In this document: positions 18,569 to 25,808 of the stretch, one piece after another
Numbering within the stretch: position 1 is the stretch's first letter
Layout of the letters: every line of letters begins with the position of its first letter
Assembly: GCA_037443265.1 (NCBI GenBank)
Contig: JBBIOR010000024.1
Location: forward strand, 1-27,760
DNA length: 27,760 nucleotides
Reading direction: 5' to 3'
Source of the DNA: Candidatus Fraserbacteria bacterium
GTDB lineage: Bacteria > Bipolaricaulota > Bipolaricaulia > RBG-16-55-9
Translations under genes and position numbers: made by a program
Notes under the pieces: generated by a model
Seen by the model: the letters and a program-made list of their open reading frames with translations, nothing else
Database searches by the model: none
Told to the model about the DNA's origin: nothing

Positions 18569-18596
18569 ATGATAAAAAGTGGACCGGATTTGTCAA
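18569..18596 (-). promoter_or_regulatory. Putative sigma70 promoter of rhodanese-sufU pair
   Basis: TTGACA (18596-18591), 16 bp, TATCAT (18574-18569). Confidence 0.6.
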
Positions 18597-19078
18597 GTTT
18601 TTTGGAGCTTGCGCTCCAGAGCCCTTTCGACGCTGGGGGGCACGAAGCGCGAGACGTCTCCGCCGAAGCTTTTGATCTCCTTGACGATACTGGAACTCAA
18701 AAAAGAATATTCGCCGCTGGTCATGAAGAAGACGCTCTCGATGTCTCCATTGAGATCCCGGTTGGTGAGGGCCATCTGGAACTCGCGCTCAAAATCTGAA
18801 TTCGCCCTCAGGCCACGGATGATCGCCTGCGCTCTATAGCGCTTGGCACACTCGATGACCAATCCCTCCCACGTGATCACTTGCACCGGGATGCCCTCCT
18901 CTTTGAGCGCCTGCTCGCAGAGCTTGCGCCGCTCCTTAAGCGAAAAGAGCGTCTGCTTCGAGGGATTGGTGACGACGGCCACGATCAGCTCATCGAAGAT
19001 CTTTCTGGCCCGCTGGACGATGTCGATGTGGCCATAGGTGATGGGGTCGAAGCTGCCGGGGTAGATCGCTCGGGGCAT
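18593..19078 (-). CDS. coaD: Phosphopantetheine adenylyltransferase
   Basis: IYPGSFDPITYGHIDI, NPSK, IIRGLRANSDFEREFQMA, LSSSIVKEI. Confidence 0.96.
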   Translation of the reverse strand: MPRAIYPGSFDPITYGHIDIVQRARKIFDELIVAVVTNPSKQTLFSLKERRKLCEQALKEEGIPVQVITWEGLVIECAKRYRAQAIIRGLRANSDFEREFQMALTNRDLNGDIESVFFMTSGEYSFLSSSIVKEIKSFGGDVSRFVPPSVERALERKLQKT

Positions 19079-19083
19079 GGCCC

Positions 19084-19632
19084 TCAGGCTCCTTTGGAAT
19101 AGTGAGGGTGGGTCTCCGGCATGCCCGCCTGATGATTGACTAGGCGCGCCATCAAGAAGAGCAAGTCTGAGAGGCGGTTCAAATATTTTATCACTTCGGG
19201 GTTGATCTCTTCATGGGCGGCGAGTTCCACGGTGCGGCGCTCGGCGCGGCGCGCGACGGTGCGAGCAAAATGCAAGAGCCCTCCCGCAAACGTCCCGCCG
19301 GGCAGAATGAATCTCTTGAGCGGGGGGAGCTTCTCATCGAGCTGATCGCAAAGATTCTCAAGACCCTCGACGTGAGGAGCAGAGATCCGCGGGCCGTCTC
19401 TTTTAAGATCCGGATTCGCCAGATCCGCGCAGACGATGTGCAGATCGTTCTGTACTCTCTCAATCCATTCTTTGAGCTTGGGATCTTCCACTTGAACGGC
19501 GGCCACTCCCAAAAGAGCGTTCAGCTCATCGACGGTGCCATAGGCTTCGATGCGCAGAGAGGCCTTGCTCACGCGTCTTCCACCGAAGAGGCCCGTCTCG
19601 CCCTTGTCCCCCCTGCGCGTGTAGATCTTCAT
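19084..19632 (-). CDS. pduO: ATP:cob(I)alamin adenosyltransferase, PduO type
   Basis: KIYTRRGDKGET, YGTVDELN, FILPGG, RTVARRAER, YLNRLSDLLF. Confidence 0.94.
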   Translation of the reverse strand: MKIYTRRGDKGETGLFGGRRVSKASLRIEAYGTVDELNALLGVAAVQVEDPKLKEWIERVQNDLHIVCADLANPDLKRDGPRISAPHVEGLENLCDQLDEKLPPLKRFILPGGTFAGGLLHFARTVARRAERRTVELAAHEEINPEVIKYLNRLSDLLFLMARLVNHQAGMPETHPHYSKGA

Positions 19633-20558
19633 AGAATGCCCTCCACAGGGTACACAGAACCCTCTGGCACTTCCAAATCGCTGAAGAGCTCTGGGTGGAC
19701 GATCTTTGCCAGAATCTCAAGCCCTATCACGATCCTGGGGCCGGGGCGATTGAAATAATATGAGCCATGCACGATATAGACTTGCCCGTCCTTGACAGCT
19801 CGCAACTCACCCCAGTTCTCATAGTCTAGCAGAAGGTCGAGCTCCTGCATCGTCTGCTCTGGCGTAAAGCCGCAGGGCATGAGCACGATGATCTCCGGGT
19901 CGAATCTTTCAATATCGATCCAGGTAATCTCATAGGAGGGCTCTCCAATCTCTCCCAGCGGCTCGCCTCCGGCCAGCTCGACCATCTCCGGCACCCAGTG
20001 GCCCGCCACAAAGAGCGGCTCCAGCCACTCGATCGCCAGTGTCCTCGGACGCTCTTCTACTCTTTCCGTGCACGCTCGCACCCGCTCGATTCGCCCGCGC
20101 AATCTGGCAATGAGCTTGTGCGCTTGTGCTTCTCGATTCGTCAATTGCCCGATGAGCTCGATGTTCTCCAGGATCTCATCCAAGCGCGTGGGCTCCAGCG
20201 AGACGATTTTGGGCTCCACGTCGAGGATTTTGGCCGCTTTCAGCACTTCGCTGAAGGAGGGAGCGCAGACCTCGCAAAGCTCTTGCGTTACGATGAGATC
20301 CGACTGAAGCGCTCGAAGCTGCTCCGCATCCAAGTGATAGACGCTCAGCCCACTATGCACGAGCTCTCTCACTATCTGGTCAATCTCGCGGCTGGAGAGG
20401 TCGCCGGGGATAGCGGGCTGGCTGAGCACGGGTTTTCCGATGATCTCCGGTGGCCAGTCGCAGTCGTGGGAGATGCCCACAAGCTCATCGCTTAGCCCCA
20501 GCGCGCAGATGATCTCCGTGGCGCTGGGCAGAAGTGAGATTATACGCATGTTTCTCAT
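19629..20558 (-). CDS. BtuF/TroA-like cobalamin-binding-fold protein lacking a signal peptide
   Basis: RIISLLPSATEI, SHDCD, TQELCEVCA, GHWVPEM, MPCGF, FNRPGPR; start 20558 (ATGA overlap) or 20549. Confidence 0.82.
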   Translation of the reverse strand: MRNMRIISLLPSATEIICALGLSDELVGISHDCDWPPEIIGKPVLSQPAIPGDLSSREIDQIVRELVHSGLSVYHLDAEQLRALQSDLIVTQELCEVCAPSFSEVLKAAKILDVEPKIVSLEPTRLDEILENIELIGQLTNREAQAHKLIARLRGRIERVRACTERVEERPRTLAIEWLEPLFVAGHWVPEMVELAGGEPLGEIGEPSYEITWIDIERFDPEIIVLMPCGFTPEQTMQELDLLLDYENWGELRAVKDGQVYIVHGSYYFNRPGPRIVIGLEILAKIVHPELFSDLEVPEGSVYPVEGIL

Positions 20559-21223
20559 CCTCTCGGCAGAAGATCACAGAAGTAGTGACCATCCCGCAGG
20601 ACGATTTCACCTGGCTGAAAGTTTATCGGGCATGAGAAGAGCGGACCATCGTAGACGAAGCTGTGGAACTCCCCCCGCTCGCCGCAGGGATCGACTCCCT
20701 CAGGCAAACTGACAAGAAACTCTTCATCGATCTTGCGCCCCACGAACTCTGCCCCCAAATGCTGAGCGCTCACGCAAACGGTCATGGCCTGAAACCCCAA
20801 CTCCAGAAATCGGCGGACCAGGAGGTTCGTATCCCGACCCCACAGAGGGGTGAGCAGCTCCATATCGACCATCCTGAGTTTTTCTTCTCGGTAGCGCCGG
20901 ATGTCCTCCAGGAAGATGTCTCCTGTGGCGATGCTGCGGATGCCAACCTCCTTGAGTTCAAGCATGATCTTCAGGAGACTTTGCTCGTATTCTTTGTTTG
21001 TATGGGTTTTCACGACGTACATGGGGATGAGCTTCTGGCCCAGCGCTCGCGCTTGAGCAAGCAGAAGCTCGTGGCGGACGCCGTGCATGCTGACACGATC
21101 ATAGTCTTTTGTGAACGTCGTGAGTAACCCACAGACTTCAAATTGCGGATCGTGGAGCAGTTCGTATAGGGCGAGGACGCTGTCCTTGCCTCCGCTCCAC
21201 TGTAACACGATCTTCTTCTTCAT
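20555..21223 (-). CDS. PP-loop ATP pyrophosphatase, Dph6/DUF71 (COG2102) family
   Basis: WSGGKDS, MHGVR, GDIFLED, PLW, DPCGERGEFHSFVYDGP; ATG 21223 overlaps upstream TGA. Confidence 0.9.
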   Translation of the reverse strand: MKKKIVLQWSGGKDSVLALYELLHDPQFEVCGLLTTFTKDYDRVSMHGVRHELLLAQARALGQKLIPMYVVKTHTNKEYEQSLLKIMLELKEVGIRSIATGDIFLEDIRRYREEKLRMVDMELLTPLWGRDTNLLVRRFLELGFQAMTVCVSAQHLGAEFVGRKIDEEFLVSLPEGVDPCGERGEFHSFVYDGPLFSCPINFQPGEIVLRDGHYFCDLLPRG

Positions 21224-22041
21224 GATGAGCGGATGACGGCCTGAGATGCGGATCGCACGGAAGAGCGGGGCAAGATCCAAATCTCTCCGGATTCTTTGAA
21301 AATTTCGATCTCGATGTGCCAGATCTCCCGAATGCGCTCGAGAGTGAACACTTCATCCGGTGGCCCGCATGCCACCAGACGCCCCTGGGAGAGCACACCC
21401 ACCCGATCTGCATATCGGGCCGCGAGATTGAGGTCATGGAGCGCGCAGATCACCGTGAGTCCTCGCTTCGATAGCCCTCGAATCAACTCCATGATCTCGA
21501 TTTGATATTTCAGATCGAGATGGGCTGTAGGCTCATCGAGCAGGAGGACCTTGGGCTCCTGGGCGAGCGCCATAGCCAGAAAGACCCGCTGGCGCTCCCC
21601 GCTGGAGAGCGAATGGATGCTGCGATCCGCAAATTGCGCCACCCCGACGCGCTCCATGGCCTCTTCCACAACGCGCCGGTCTTCTTCCGCCAGAGGTTTC
21701 AGCTTGCGTGAGTGCGGCAGACGCCCGAGCGAGACGGTCTCCCGCACCGTGAAGTCGAAGGCCACGTGGACTTCTTGCTCAAGGGCCGCCAAGGAGCGAG
21801 CCAGCTCTTTGGGCGCAAGCTGAGATACGGGATGCGACTGACCGTCGACAAAATCGAGATAGACAGTCCCCGTGTCCATAGGGATCACCCCGGAGATGGC
21901 GCGCAAAAGGGTCGTCTTGCCACTTCCGTTAGGCCCGATGAGCGCGAAGAATTCCCCAGCCTTTACCGCGAGCGTGATCTCTGCCAGAATGGGTCGGCCC
22001 TTGTACGCAAACGTCAAGTCCTCCACACGAATGGCGGTCAC
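21220..22041 (-). CDS. ABC transporter ATPase (BtuD/FecE-like)
   Basis: GPNGSGKT, LSSGERQR, LLLDEPTAHLD, LHDLNLA. Confidence 0.93.
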   Translation of the reverse strand: MTAIRVEDLTFAYKGRPILAEITLAVKAGEFFALIGPNGSGKTTLLRAISGVIPMDTGTVYLDFVDGQSHPVSQLAPKELARSLAALEQEVHVAFDFTVRETVSLGRLPHSRKLKPLAEEDRRVVEEAMERVGVAQFADRSIHSLSSGERQRVFLAMALAQEPKVLLLDEPTAHLDLKYQIEIMELIRGLSKRGLTVICALHDLNLAARYADRVGVLSQGRLVACGPPDEVFTLERIREIWHIEIEIFKESGEIWILPRSSVRSASQAVIRSS

Positions 22042-23087
22042 GAATACATCCCTCCTTGAGGGCTCATGGCACGACGGGAGTGCCTAAGCAGATACAGAAA
22101 GAAGGGCGCGCCCCATAGGGCCGTGATGATCCCGACGGGAAGCTCCGCGGGAGCCAGCACCGTTCGAGCCGCTGTATCGCACAATACGAGAAAGGCAGCT
22201 CCGGCCAAGGCTGAAGAGGGGAGCAATCGGCTGTGATCCGGCCCGACGATCAGGCGTATCGCGTGCGGGACGATCAAGCCGACGAAGCCGATTGTTCCAG
22301 CCACGGCCACCGCCGAGGCCGTCAGGAGGGTGACGACTAGAAGGAGCCCTTTCTTGAGCGTCTCAGGGTTTGCGCCCAGATGGCGGGCCATGGGCTCGCC
22401 CAAGGCCAGAGCGTTCAGCTCTCGGCTGAAGAGGAGCAGCGCCAGTGTTCCTAGCACGGTCAAGGCGAGGAGCGGTGCAACGTAAGGCCAGCGGGGCGCC
22501 CCCAGGCCCCCCATGAGCCAGAAGACGATCTTTCTGAGATCCTCGCTCTGAGCTGTGAAGATCAAAAAGCTTGTCACAGCGGAGAAGAGCGCGGCCAGCG
22601 CCACGCCCGTGAGAATCAGCGTATAGTTGTCAAACCGGACGGCGTGTGAGCCCGAGCCGCTCACGCGATAGACCAAGAGCACCACGATCCAAGCGCCGAG
22701 AAACGCTCCCGCGGGCAGAGCAAAGGGCCAGCGCTCCAGTCCCAGGGCGATGGTGAGCGCGGCTCCTGCGGAAGCCCCGCTGGCAATGCCCAGCAGATAC
22801 GGGTCAGCTAGAGGATTCCGGAAGATCCCCTGCATGACGCCTCCAGAAAGAGCCAAGGCCCAGCCGACGAGCATTCCCAAAAGCACACGCGGCAGTCGCA
22901 CATCGAGGAGAATCCGCTCGTACACGCTGCCATCTGAGAAGCCGAGCAGTGCTTTAAGACCCTCACCCAACGGGATTGGCACTGAGCCCACGGCCACTCC
23001 GATCAGCAAGGCGGCAGACAGGAGCGTAAGCAACACGAGAAAGACACTCGTGCTCTTCCCTCTGTGCGTGATCCATTGGGCTCTCAT
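22038..23087 (-). CDS. ABC transporter permease (BtuC/FecCD family)
   Basis: VRLPRV, FRNPLADPYLLG, FWLMG, IGFVGLIVPH, ELPVG. Confidence 0.93.
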   Translation of the reverse strand: MRAQWITHRGKSTSVFLVLLTLLSAALLIGVAVGSVPIPLGEGLKALLGFSDGSVYERILLDVRLPRVLLGMLVGWALALSGGVMQGIFRNPLADPYLLGIASGASAGAALTIALGLERWPFALPAGAFLGAWIVVLLVYRVSGSGSHAVRFDNYTLILTGVALAALFSAVTSFLIFTAQSEDLRKIVFWLMGGLGAPRWPYVAPLLALTVLGTLALLLFSRELNALALGEPMARHLGANPETLKKGLLLVVTLLTASAVAVAGTIGFVGLIVPHAIRLIVGPDHSRLLPSSALAGAAFLVLCDTAARTVLAPAELPVGIITALWGAPFFLYLLRHSRRAMSPQGGMYS

Positions 23088-23974
23088 CGTCGCTCTTCAA
23101 AGGCTTCGGGGTGGAGGAGCTGGGCGACCGTGCGCAGCGTTTGAGCTACGCGGGAAGAGGTCCATTGGGAAGCCTTCACGCCGAAGATCTTCTTTTGGCG
23201 CACCGCTTGCAAGTCCTTCAAGCGCTCATCGTTCTCAAAGAACTGGATCTGGGATGGATCGGTGATGATCACTTCCGGGTCGCGCGCCAAAAGAGCCTCC
23301 AGGCTCACCTCGCCCCCGAAGGGCGTGATATCTGAAAAGACATCGAGGCCTCCGGCACGCGTGACGATCTCATGCTCTGGAGAAGCCGGGCCGGGGGCAA
23401 AGGGTAGACTCTCAAAGGAGCCGCGATAGAGCACGGCCACCCTCACTTTGGGGCGATCGAAAACTCTCTCTTCAAGGGCGATGATCTCCTCGGCCAAGCG
23501 CCCGATGAGTCGATCGGCTCTTTCAGAATCTCCCCAAAGCAGCAGGCCGACGTTGCGGATCAATCTGAAAATCTCTGTGATGCGATCTATGAAGCCTCCC
23601 GATTTTCCGCCCAAGAAGACGACTAGGCCTGCGTCCTCCAGCGTGAGGCGCACGGGATCAAAGGCCCCCAGGACCAGATCCGGCTGAAGCGCCAAGATCC
23701 GCTCGACGCTGGGGTTAAAAGCCGTGCCCACTTTGGGAAGATCTTTGAGTTCGGGCGGGTTATCGGGAGAGTCGGCCACTCCGACGATGCGCGCTCCGGC
23801 TTCCAGATCGAGCACGATCTCAGCATAGAGCGGCAAGATCGTCACAATCCGCTGGGGCTCTTGGAGAAGGGTGATCTCCCGACCGCGCTCGTCGATGACC
23901 GTGACCGGAAAGCCAGCCCAAAGAGTCCCGCTGATGAGTACCACAAGCAAGACGAAAAGAGCAAACTTTCGCAT
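23084..23974 (-). CDS. ABC transporter substrate-binding protein (BtuF-like)
   Basis: Signal peptide without lipobox; VIDERGREI, PQRIV, VERILALQPDLV, LLARDPEVI, LHPE. Confidence 0.88.
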   Translation of the reverse strand: MRKFALFVLLVVLISGTLWAGFPVTVIDERGREITLLQEPQRIVTILPLYAEIVLDLEAGARIVGVADSPDNPPELKDLPKVGTAFNPSVERILALQPDLVLGAFDPVRLTLEDAGLVVFLGGKSGGFIDRITEIFRLIRNVGLLLWGDSERADRLIGRLAEEIIALEERVFDRPKVRVAVLYRGSFESLPFAPGPASPEHEIVTRAGGLDVFSDITPFGGEVSLEALLARDPEVIITDPSQIQFFENDERLKDLQAVRQKKIFGVKASQWTSSRVAQTLRTVAQLLHPEAFEERR

Positions 23975-23977
23975 AGT

Positions 23978-24571
23978 CTATCCTCCTGATTGCGTTTTCA
24001 TGGGGAACAACTCGGTCAGAACGCACCAGAGGCCGCCCGCGGCTACACGACGCGTGGGGCCAAAGACGATGACCATCCCATCTCCGGGCTGTGAATCGAA
24101 GGCGAAGGCGCGCTCAAGATGGGATGCATCGTGGGGATTCTGTCGGGCAAGCGGCGTCGGATCATCGCTCAACGTCCAGCTGCTCTGGCGTCGGATCAGC
24201 AGGAGGGCCCCAGTGGCACCCGCCCGCACGGCCGCATCTCGATAGCGCCAGCTCTCGCGAAACCGCTCGCCCATGCCTCGGATGAGAGCAGCAACGTTCT
24301 TATGATCCAGAGCGAGTTCTTTCAATGGTAGCTCCTCGACGCGGGGCACTCTCTCAAAGAGCCTCTGAAACGCCCGGCGGCCCGCCGGGGTGAGTGTCGT
24401 GCCCCCCTTGGCCATCTTCACATAGCCTGCTGTCCGCAGCTTGTTCAGATGCGTGCGCACGGTGCTCTCCGTGATGCCCGTGCGCTGCACGAGCGTTCTG
24501 CGCCCCAGCGCGTGCTGATCCAGTGCGTAGACCAGTTGATAGACCGTCGGCAGATGGCCGAGTTCTGCCAT
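23978..24571 (-). CDS. Winged-helix protein resembling archaeal DUF4443/PH0730 family; putative transcription regulator
   Basis: LGRRTL..TGITESTVRTHLNKL..G..LTPAG wHTH; RDAAVRAGATGALLL and GDGMVIVFG match my recollection of that family; GGGGAG RBS. Confidence 0.75.
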   Translation of the reverse strand: MAELGHLPTVYQLVYALDQHALGRRTLVQRTGITESTVRTHLNKLRTAGYVKMAKGGTTLTPAGRRAFQRLFERVPRVEELPLKELALDHKNVAALIRGMGERFRESWRYRDAAVRAGATGALLLIRRQSSWTLSDDPTPLARQNPHDASHLERAFAFDSQPGDGMVIVFGPTRRVAAGGLWCVLTELFPMKTQSGG

Positions 24572-24592
24572 CCGGACCGTCTCCCCATCGAT

Positions 24593-24611
24593 GTGGGATA
24601 GTATATCCCAC
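24593..24611. promoter_or_regulatory. Perfect palindrome GTGGGATA-GTA-TATCCCAC, candidate operator
   Basis: 8-3-8 inverted repeat between the predicted TSS (about 24619) and the RBS of the wHTH gene. Confidence 0.7.
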
Positions 24612-24625
24612 TGGCGTTAGCATTG

Positions 24626-24654
24626 ATCATACCCGAAGTCGCTTCTAGTGTCAA
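24626..24654 (-). promoter_or_regulatory. Sigma70 promoter of the corrinoid uptake/salvage-like operon
   Basis: TTGACA (24654-24649), 17 bp, TATGAT (24631-24626). Confidence 0.8.
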
Positions 24655-24754
24655 GCGCAGCTCGGCGTTCATCCCACTTGACTTACCTCTGGGATTCTGT
24701 TAATAAGATTCAATCTCACGGATCTCGCAGTCTTCTGCGGGAAAGGGGAAAGTC

Positions 24755-25591
24755 ATGACCAATCTGCCGAACTGGGCGCTCGTGCTAGTGCTCATTGCAG
24801 CGATCGTGTTGCTAGGGATCATGCGAATGGGATCGGGGCCGACGCTGCAGCCTGCCGTGATGAACGTCAGCGAGTTGGCATCAAAGTCTCAAGAGGTGAT
24901 GGGGTTTAAAGGCTTTTATAGTGCGCCGGTGGCAGGCGTGCGCAGTGGTGGGCTGATCTGGGGACGGTTTGAGAATGCCGACATCCCGATGCATTACCAC
25001 CCTCAGAACGAAGTGGTCTACACGCTTCAAGGGCAAGTCACATTGAACTCGGCCGATGGGTCAAGCAGCACGCTTGGGCCGGGACAGCTCGTCATTCTTC
25101 CCGCCAGCGTGGCCCATGCGGCGAGTGGCTCTGGGGACTTTCTACTCTTTGCGACCCCGCCTAGTAACTTCCAAGACACCGTTTGGCTGGAAGGGCCGAT
25201 GACCAAGCCCGGAGCCAAAGCCGACCCGACGAAGACCCCACAGATCATCGACGCCGCTCAGCGCATCGCCCAAGGGCTGGAGCAGCAACGGGAGGGATTC
25301 CAATTTAGCATGGTCTTTGATGCGAAGACCGGCAGCGCCGAGCTCTTCCGCATCGAAAAGGGCGTTGCCCTACACAAACACCCGAAGGAGAATCACTTCC
25401 TCTACATTCTGAAGGGTCGCGGTCAGGGCCAAGTGGGGAATATGACCGCTGAAGTCGGACCGGGGCAGATCGTCGTCATCCCGGCAGATGTTCCGCACAA
25501 ACTGGAGCGCATTGGCAGTGATCCTCTCGATTTCATTCTCTTCTCGACGCCGCCCTTCCGCGTGGATGACATCGTCTGGCTCAAACCATGA
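24755..25591 (+). CDS. Bicupin protein with N-terminal signal/anchor
   Basis: Two cupin repeats: HYHPQNE..LGPGQLVILPASVAH and HKHPKENH..VGPGQIVVIPADVPH. Confidence 0.85.
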   Translation: MTNLPNWALVLVLIAAIVLLGIMRMGSGPTLQPAVMNVSELASKSQEVMGFKGFYSAPVAGVRSGGLIWGRFENADIPMHYHPQNEVVYTLQGQVTLNSADGSSSTLGPGQLVILPASVAHAASGSGDFLLFATPPSNFQDTVWLEGPMTKPGAKADPTKTPQIIDAAQRIAQGLEQQREGFQFSMVFDAKTGSAELFRIEKGVALHKHPKENHFLYILKGRGQGQVGNMTAEVGPGQIVVIPADVPHKLERIGSDPLDFILFSTPPFRVDDIVWLKP

Positions 25592-25625: not shown

Positions 25626-25808
25626 ATGAAAGTATTACGCTGCCGAGACACGGGCAGTAGCTGTGACTTTGTCGCCCGTGCCCAGACAGAACAAGAGCTA
25701 TGGCAGAAGGTCGCCGAGCACGCGCAGAAAGCGCATAACATGAAACTCACGGACGAGATGAAAGCTCAGCTGCGCAGATTCGTGCGTGAGGAGCTGCCTA
25801 AGCGCTAG
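25626..25808 (+). CDS. DUF1059-family small metal-binding protein
   Basis: MKVLRCRDTG..CDFVARA.TE.EL...AEHA...H pattern; AGGAGGAGG RBS. Confidence 0.85.
   Translation: MKVLRCRDTGSSCDFVARAQTEQELWQKVAEHAQKAHNMKLTDEMKAQLRRFVREELPKR

Follow-up and report, generated by a model that had tools for sequence, protein, structure and literature searches.

The window analysed here is a stretch of 27,760 nt from Candidatus Fraserbacteria bacterium contig JBBIOR010000024.1 (GCA_037443265.1, an assembly of 1.69 Mb that is 88% complete), a member of the phylum Bipolaricaulota. Its minus strand bears an operon headed by a gene coding for a 197-aa protein with a winged helix-turn-helix (wHTH) and a DUF4443 domain (23978-24571), hereafter the regulator, which is followed by genes resembling btuF, btuC and btuD. 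Our comparison of sequences across the phylum makes it likely that the regulon for corrinoid (B12) uptake and salvage in Bipolaricaulota has this protein as its transcription factor. It would most likely act as a protein-based repressor of corrinoid uptake, autoregulated in the window, that replaces the B12 riboswitch across the phylum. A preliminary description of this DNA, made from its letters alone, had proposed an autoregulatory repressor of a B12 operon, and the comparative evidence supports this proposal: a palindrome is found with the regulator and btuFCD, stays with btuFCD in genomes that encode the regulator at another locus, and lies just past the -10 element of the promoter.

The promoter TTGACA-17-TATGAT announced in that description is present on the minus strand (24654-24626). 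Its -35 hexamer TTGACA (24649-24654) and -10 hexamer TATGAT (24626-24631), separated by 17 nt, were read in the sequence and recovered by a promoter scan that rated the site 11/12 with both hexamers. Four promoter-like sites were observed in 8.4 kb, compared to 2.1 ± 1.4 in shuffled sequences, a count that is unremarkable by itself. Fourteen nucleotides past the -10 element begins the candidate operator, a perfect palindrome GTGGGATA-N3-TATCCCAC (24593-24611, either strand), which reads in full GTGGGATATACTATCCCAC from 24611 to 24593, with arms of 8 nt and a spacer of 3 nt. If transcription starts about 7 nt past the -10 element, the leader would be about 48 nt long, in keeping with the leader of about 50 nt containing a perfect repeat described earlier, and the palindrome would span approximately +8 to +26. 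Its end is separated from the ATG (24571) by 21 nt that include a Shine-Dalgarno-like GGGGAG (24581-24586, minus strand, read from the sequence) located 9 nt ahead of the start codon.

The palindrome is rare at every scale that we searched. With up to 3 mismatches allowed it has a single match in the window, compared to 0.02 expected, and only 2 of 100 shuffled sequences contained any match. Its exact sequence occurs once in the 1.69-Mb genome, in the window, and the same copy is the sole genomic site that exceeds 14 bits with a matrix built from 16 orthologous sites. Three sites with 3 mismatches found elsewhere in the genome were dismissed as chance matches, being near the level of a reversed-pattern control and none of them exceeding 14 bits. 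We also observed a third copy of the half-site GTGGGAT directly upstream of the -35 box (24671-24677, minus strand), one of five copies in the window, three of which lie inside 85 nt, with an ATCCCA 13 nt further upstream (about 24692-24697). This third half-site may be an auxiliary site or a product of chance; it is not kept at its position in the orthologs.

The assignment of the regulator to the DUF4443 family, suggested in the preliminary description, was confirmed at the levels of sequence and structure. Its C-terminal part matches DUF4443 (PF14544; E 1.4e-11, 44.7 bits, cut-off 27), and a six-frame search of the genome with PF14544 gave 46.1 bits for the regulator. A profile of 24 homologs searched against the PDB identified PH0730 of Pyrococcus horikoshii (2p8t_A) as a full-length homolog (E 8.3e-24, query residues 16-186). 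The AlphaFold2 model of the regulator (pLDDT 94.2) was aligned with the same structure by Foldseek over 189 columns (E 1.2e-10, TM 0.70). The next structural matches were bacterial aspartyl-tRNA synthetases (E ~1e-4), and a weak echo was seen in the profile search with the aspartyl-tRNA synthetase 6wom (query 118-182 to chain 352-413, E 0.19), in a region that we take to be the GAD insertion domain.

The N-terminal half of the regulator is a wHTH domain matching CggR_N (34.4 bits) and HTH_5 (27.8 bits, cut-off 22) in Pfam. Profile searches against the PDB linked it to the CggR-type structures 2o0m, 8r3g and 7oyk with E-values between 1e-8 and 2e-9, and Foldseek aligned it over 72 columns with 7oyk, the DNA-binding domain of CggR bound to its operator. 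A (T/S)E(S/M)xVR motif in the recognition helix is retained in most of 40 orthologs, which would agree with the constancy of the half-site GTGGGAT. In the C-terminal domain the most conserved motif is R111-D112-x-A114-x3-G118-x2-G121. No Cys or His occupies an invariant or near-invariant column of either the alignment of 24 sequences or the archaeal alignment. Furthermore, the ArsR/SmtB model NF033788 scored 23.3 bits against a cut-off of 55.

A word-indexed search returned 56 homologs, all metagenomic and all containing PF14544, and those records that bear a name are metagenome-assembled genomes of Candidatus Bipolaricaulota or Candidatus Fraserbacteria. A profile search of 184 Bipolaricaulota genomes detected the regulator in 88, which cover 35 of 54 genera. 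We compared 40 of these 88 loci, selected for family spread and long contigs, and found that genes for BtuF-, BtuC- and BtuD-like proteins directly follow the regulator on the same strand in 32 of them. The longer operon of the window is partly kept, with the second BtuF-like gene present in 11 of the 40 loci, PduO in 5 and DUF71 in 3. In the eight exceptions the regulator lies among housekeeping neighbors. The association with btu and pduO genes that the preliminary description had named as a check is thus found in homologous loci, strongly for btuFCD and in a minority for PduO.

The palindrome follows the same pattern. With up to 2 mismatches it was found upstream of the regulator in 15 of the 40 loci, all of which share the gene order of the window. 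A scan with the site matrix was more revealing: exactly the 32 loci in which the regulator is linked to btuFCD contain a site adjoining the regulator, one per locus, scoring 12.3 to 33.9 bits, and no site stands beside the regulator in the 8 loci lacking btuFCD. Only three matches, of 13-15 bits, occurred elsewhere in the 590 kb scanned. Conservation of the palindrome, another of the checks proposed earlier, is therefore seen in all 32 btuFCD-linked loci, alongside the single site in the genome of the window. Seventeen of the 32 loci have the site downstream of the regulator and ahead of btuF, where it follows a separate promoter, and in these loci the operator is predicted to govern btuFCD and not the regulator.

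We then asked where the site is found when the regulator and btuFCD are not neighbors. In six of the eight genomes with an unlinked regulator, a site lies directly before the best btuFCD operon, with scores of 30.4 (L090), 14.1 (L091), 20.3 (L092), 24.6 (L100), 31.1 (L101) and 30.1 bits (L102). In a seventh genome (L089) the site is perfect and stands ahead of a gene whose product contains both B12-binding domains; a BtuC homolog was not detected in this assembly, which is 85% complete. In the eighth, btuF begins at a contig end, which hides its upstream region. Five paralogous FecCD operons of these genomes showed no site. Across the phylum, a site with at most 1 mismatch was found in 100 of the 184 genomes, namely in 77 of the 88 that encode the regulator and in 23 of the 96 in which it was not detected.

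We examined 20 further sites, taken among the matches listed. Three precede btuFCD and one precedes a btuF-DUF71-btuC cluster, two stand before cbiM-cbiQ-ATPase genes adjoining hemD, six before a gene for a B12-binding protein followed by one for a GDC-P-family protein, and five before a gene for a secreted protein of 435-463 aa without Pfam match; the remaining three are at contig ends.

The secreted proteins (L108:3543-4853, L109:3545-4855, L110:3542-4849, L111:2166-3557 and L112:1112-2500, the last two on the minus strand) share 42-68% identity in the three that were compared. They were seen in one family of the phylum, where the operator before them is a second, perfect one. Downstream of the target in L108 lies a gene for a further secreted protein, which has a weak beta-propeller match. 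These proteins may serve in extracellular corrinoid capture; no homolog of them was found in the genome of the window. The B12-binding proteins are represented by L089:787-1422 and L116:2771-3406, both on the minus strand, and by five similar loci, in which the operator lies upstream of a gene pair coding for a B12-binding corrinoid protein together with a member of the GDC-P family (about 447 aa). Both annotated loci (L089 and L116) also encode, beside this pair, an OpuAC glycine-betaine-type binding protein. The pair may constitute a corrinoid methyltransferase system not described before, activated rather than repressed by the regulator.

Bacterial operons for B12 uptake are usually associated with cobalamin riboswitches, and the preliminary description had suggested that here a protein stands in place of the RNA. 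Our searches favor this view. No Rfam family reached its gathering score in the window, and the cobalamin riboswitch model RF00174 was not found in the source genome (E ≤ 0.001). Among 151 genomes of the phylum it was detected in 2, and in none of the 69 high-quality ones, a search run with stricter filters on many incomplete genomes, so that for the other 149 the result is to be read as not found rather than absent; the same search was positive in 7 of 14 control genomes. The two matches are L085 (G131:C30:27141-27307) and L086 (G030:C60:290-441). G131 also carries a DUF4443 regulator, and the open reading frame downstream of the L085 riboswitch has no Pfam match.

The operon of the window has the content foreseen in the preliminary description, to which a gene for CoaD is added. 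Three nucleotides after the regulator begins a gene for a BtuF-like binding protein with a signal peptide (Peripla_BP_2, 77.9 bits; 23084-23974), followed by genes for a BtuC-like permease (FecCD, 331 bits; 22038-23087), a BtuD-like ABC ATPase (ABC_tran, 113 bits; 21220-22041), a DUF71 PP-loop ATPase (Diphthami_syn_2, 126.8 bits; 20555-21280), a second BtuF-like protein (Peripla_BP_2 in Pfam; 19629-20558), a PduO corrinoid adenosyltransferase (206 bits in Pfam; TIGR00636 199.9 bits, above its cut-off; 19084-19632) and finally CoaD (NCBIfam; 18593-19078), all on the minus strand and separated or overlapping by a few bases. The coordinates given for DUF71 are those of the longest open reading frame; since the Pfam match begins at residue 23, translation probably begins at an internal ATG. 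The second BtuF-like protein begins at once with the conserved fold and lacks a signal peptide; it is therefore presumably cytoplasmic, and it may hold corrinoid inside the cell for DUF71 or PduO. A separate promoter, TTGACA-16-TATCAT (11/12; 18569-18596, minus strand), lies at the 3' end of coaD before rhodanese and SufU genes, and we therefore set the end of the operon at 18593.

The first three proteins form a complete BtuFCD-type transporter, with a secreted class-III binding protein (hydrophobic N-terminus), a FecCD permease and an ABC ATPase. B12 models rank first among the NCBIfam models for both the permease and the ATPase. As detailed below, the scores fall under the curated cut-offs, and the corrinoid substrate was thus assigned from context. 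This context, consisting of PduO, DUF71 of the B12-linked kind and an operator shared with cbiMQO and B12-binding proteins, points to corrinoids. The DUF71 gene, a bacterial one, stands among B12 transporter genes, with btuD on one side and the second btuF-like gene on the other. According to de Crecy-Lagard et al. (2012; PMC3541065), the DUF71-B12 subgroup lies beside B12 transporters in 75 of 102 cases. Furthermore, the genome encodes a methylmalonyl-CoA mutase with a B12-binding subunit and a second B12-binding mutase-like protein, while CobS and CbiC were not found in the 88%-complete assembly. Judged by its gene content, the organism looks like a corrinoid auxotroph that needs adenosylcobalamin.

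The position of the operator suggests how the regulator might act. The targets btuF, cbiM and the unknown secreted proteins share one layout: a -35 element, about 17 nt, a -10 element, 8-14 nt, and the palindrome. A protein bound just past the -10 element would hinder promoter escape or elongation, which is the layout of a repressor. At seven genes for B12-binding proteins, the palindrome instead ends 8 nt upstream of the -35 element of a TTGTAA-16-TATAAT promoter, with its center near -54, a position that would be typical of activators. In the mechanism that we propose, the regulator would bind the 19-bp GTGGGAT-N5-ATCCCAC, presumably as a dimer. By occupying positions of about +8 to +26 in the window, it would prevent transcription of btuF-btuC-btuD-DUF71-btuF2-pduO-coaD as well as of its own gene. 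The form that binds DNA would be the corrinoid-loaded protein, so that uptake would be switched off when B12 is sufficient, following the same logic as the cobalamin riboswitch. Corrinoid is proposed as the effector because the content of the regulon matches the targets of B12 riboswitches elsewhere. A corrinoid-loaded DNA-binding form would also reconcile the two layouts, as the presence of B12 would lower the import of corrinoid and cobalt and raise the expression of a corrinoid-dependent enzyme system.

A bolder version of this proposal, which we judge somewhat less likely than not, is that DUF4443 is a new cobamide-sensing domain with a GAD-like fold, unrelated to the canonical B12-binding domain. 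The protein would then be a light-independent, dual-function regulator which, when loaded with corrinoid, represses uptake and cobalt-import promoters (site after the -10 element) and activates corrinoid-dependent methyltransferase genes (site 8 nt before the -35 element), and the whole phylum would have taken this counterpart of the riboswitch from an archaeal family.

Several observations weigh against a corrinoid-sensing repressor. Binding of the palindrome by this protein, repression, the dimer and the effector are predictions. The regulator has no match to PF02310, PF02607 or any other known corrinoid motif among its 14 Pfam matches (E ≤ 0.01); its C-terminal domain is only about 100 aa long, and the nearest folds beyond PH0730, insertion domains of bacterial aspartyl-tRNA synthetases, offer no precedent for corrinoid binding. 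The association between regulator and site is imperfect, as no site (up to 1 mismatch) occurs in 11 of the 88 genomes with a regulator and one does occur in 23 of the 96 in which no regulator was detected, and the reversed-pattern control matches about 15 genomes. The genomes are also relatives rather than independent samples, hence our counts describe a pattern and overstate its support. On the side of the transporter, the curated cut-offs are unmet for the permease (BtuC, PRK09535, 301.8 vs 461), the ATPase (PRK09536, 280.8 vs 537) and the binding protein (BtuF, PRK03379, 46.6 vs 234 bits). Scores in the same range were obtained with models for heme, F420-0 and iron-siderophore transport; one of them, PRK13548 for the heme ATPase, reaches its own cut-off (263.9 vs 261 bits). 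Finally, only 4 of 80 archaeal-type loci (L128, L129, L164 and L183) lie near btu-type genes.

These points leave room for other explanations, the most serious of which concerns the effector. The same regulator and operator could respond to Co2+, to a corrin precursor or to a general metabolic or redox signal, which we judge unlikely; a cobalt sensor is the main rival. It would predict the cbiMQO cobalt transporters that we found in the regulon, it would agree with the weak ArsR/SmtB and MntR/DtxR-type matches of the N-terminal domain, and it would dispense with the B12-binding domain that the regulator does not have. Metal sensors, however, usually keep their ligands, and the bacterial alignment of 24 sequences and the archaeal one contain no conserved Cys or His, while the metalloregulator models of NCBIfam remain far under their cut-offs. 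Most targets, moreover, handle whole corrinoids (btuFCD, PduO, DUF71-B12 and B12-binding proteins). As PMC2667541 indicates, B12 riboswitch regulons also take in cbiMNQO, and the cobalt transporters are therefore no argument for metal sensing.

A different objection is that the palindrome acts as a hairpin of the leader RNA (an attenuator, a stabilizer or a protein-binding RNA) or is bound by another protein, the role of DUF4443 being unrelated. The palindrome of the window does lie inside the transcribed leader, operator binding by the regulator is only predicted, and the genomes that have a site and no detected regulator would be accounted for. We nevertheless consider this very improbable. 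At the seven B12-binding-protein genes the site is upstream of the -35 element, hence untranscribed; the arms are kept as sequence, with changes that are uncompensated, the sites of family f3 reading GTGGGAGA...CATCCCAC, as expected of a DNA site bound by protein rather than of an RNA stem; and no Rfam family matches. When the leader was folded, its stability gave a z-score of -1.58, with 12 of 200 shuffled sequences as stable, and the minimum-energy fold omitted the palindrome hairpin, so that the RNA hairpin was rejected on this test as well. The frequent co-occurrence of regulator and site (77 of 88 genomes) and their adjacency in 32 of 40 loci also argue against this objection. It is still harder to credit that the transporter carries heme, a siderophore or another metal chelate sensed by the regulator and that the link to B12 is a coincidence. 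Peripla_BP_2 and FecCD proteins transport many chelates, and models for heme, Fe-dicitrate and F420-0 come close to the BtuC and BtuD scores, with PRK13548 reaching its cut-off. Against this, the operon includes PduO and a DUF71 of the B12-linked kind, the operator also precedes cbiMQO beside hemD and genes for B12-binding-domain proteins in other genomes, and the paralogous FecCD operons of the same genomes have no site. A repressor of corrinoid uptake thus remains the reading that we prefer.

The evidence for this function does not extend to the entire family. A full HMMER scan for DUF4443 returned 1,248 clusters at 50% identity with E ≤ 0.001, 779 of them with E ≤ 1e-10. As stated in the preliminary description, the family is mainly archaeal: members of about 209 aa bear Nitrososphaerota or Bathyarchaeia names, members of about 197 aa bear Bipolaricaulia names, and all are annotated only as DUF4443. 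The archaeal clade differs by an N-terminal extension and a GEGxVRT recognition helix. We recovered 80 metagenomic loci of archaeal type using the profile of a 7-sequence alignment. DUF71 is adjacent in 12 of them, and the neighbors in 14 sampled loci are mostly housekeeping genes (ATP_bind_1, AdoMet synthetase, aminotransferases). Among the four loci with btu-type genes nearby, L128 and L129 appear to be one and the same sequence. No operator of the Bipolaricaulota type exceeded 12 bits in 434 kb of archaeal-type loci, as expected from the different recognition helix, and inverted-repeat scans near L128 and L164 returned a single 8-nt pair. Gene adjacency is therefore too sparse to establish a B12 role in the archaeal majority. 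The earlier expectation that DUF4443 would gain a function is borne out in the bacterial clade only, where a B12 role is well supported. In 5 of the 14 sampled archaeal loci (L139, L141, L160, L161 and L188) we also observed that the DUF4443 gene is convergent with ATP_bind_1, a GPN-loop GTPase-like gene.

Compared to cobalamin riboswitch regulons (RF00174), the proposed system has the same targets (btuFCD, cbiMQO-type cobalt transport and corrinoid salvage), the same presumed logic, and an element likewise placed between the promoter and the first gene. The two differ in the nature of this element: in the window, a DNA palindrome of 19 bp inside a leader about 48 nt long, with a proposed protein sensor; in the riboswitch, an RNA of about 190 nt. 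CggR/SorC repressors share the CggR_N-type wHTH and bind operators of the operon that they head, whereas their effector domain is of the SorC type, binds sugar phosphates and spans about 250 aa in CggR, compared to the DUF4443 domain of about 100 aa in the regulator. CarH/LitR and AerR-type regulators are protein-based light sensors with a cobamide ligand and the canonical B12-binding domain PF02310. Unlike CarH/LitR, the regulator has no PF02310 match, and its predicted target is B12 uptake itself. PH0730 has the same wHTH and C-terminal domain and the conserved RD-A-x3-GA-GA motif at 22% identity, and is the structural-genomics representative of DUF4443, without an assigned function.

Our literature searches found no paper naming DUF4443 or giving a function for PH0730, which in the accessible sections of PMC6316755 appears only as the name of a transcription factor family in a table. 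Nor did the titles and abstracts that we screened mention such a protein regulator of btuFCD; an earlier prediction in 2003 work on B12 regulation is possible. The accessible text of PMC2667541 mentions riboswitches as the sole B12 control. Bacterial B12 homeostasis is a textbook case of riboswitch control, and here the same set of genes appears, in a phylum almost devoid of RF00174, to be controlled by a protein and a 19-bp operator. This reading would provide a candidate function for DUF4443 (about 1,250 clusters at 50% identity) and for the orphan structure 2p8t, with bearing on B12 sensing in organisms without B12 riboswitches, archaea above all. The system is also small (197 aa and 19 bp), and its operator could serve as a marker to annotate B12-related genes in uncultured Bipolaricaulota, including the unknown secreted proteins.

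Outside the operon, and with no evident link to it, two genes of the window are divergent from the regulator: one coding for a two-cupin protein with an N-terminal hydrophobic segment (24755-25591, plus strand), the other a DUF1059 gene (25626-25808, plus strand).

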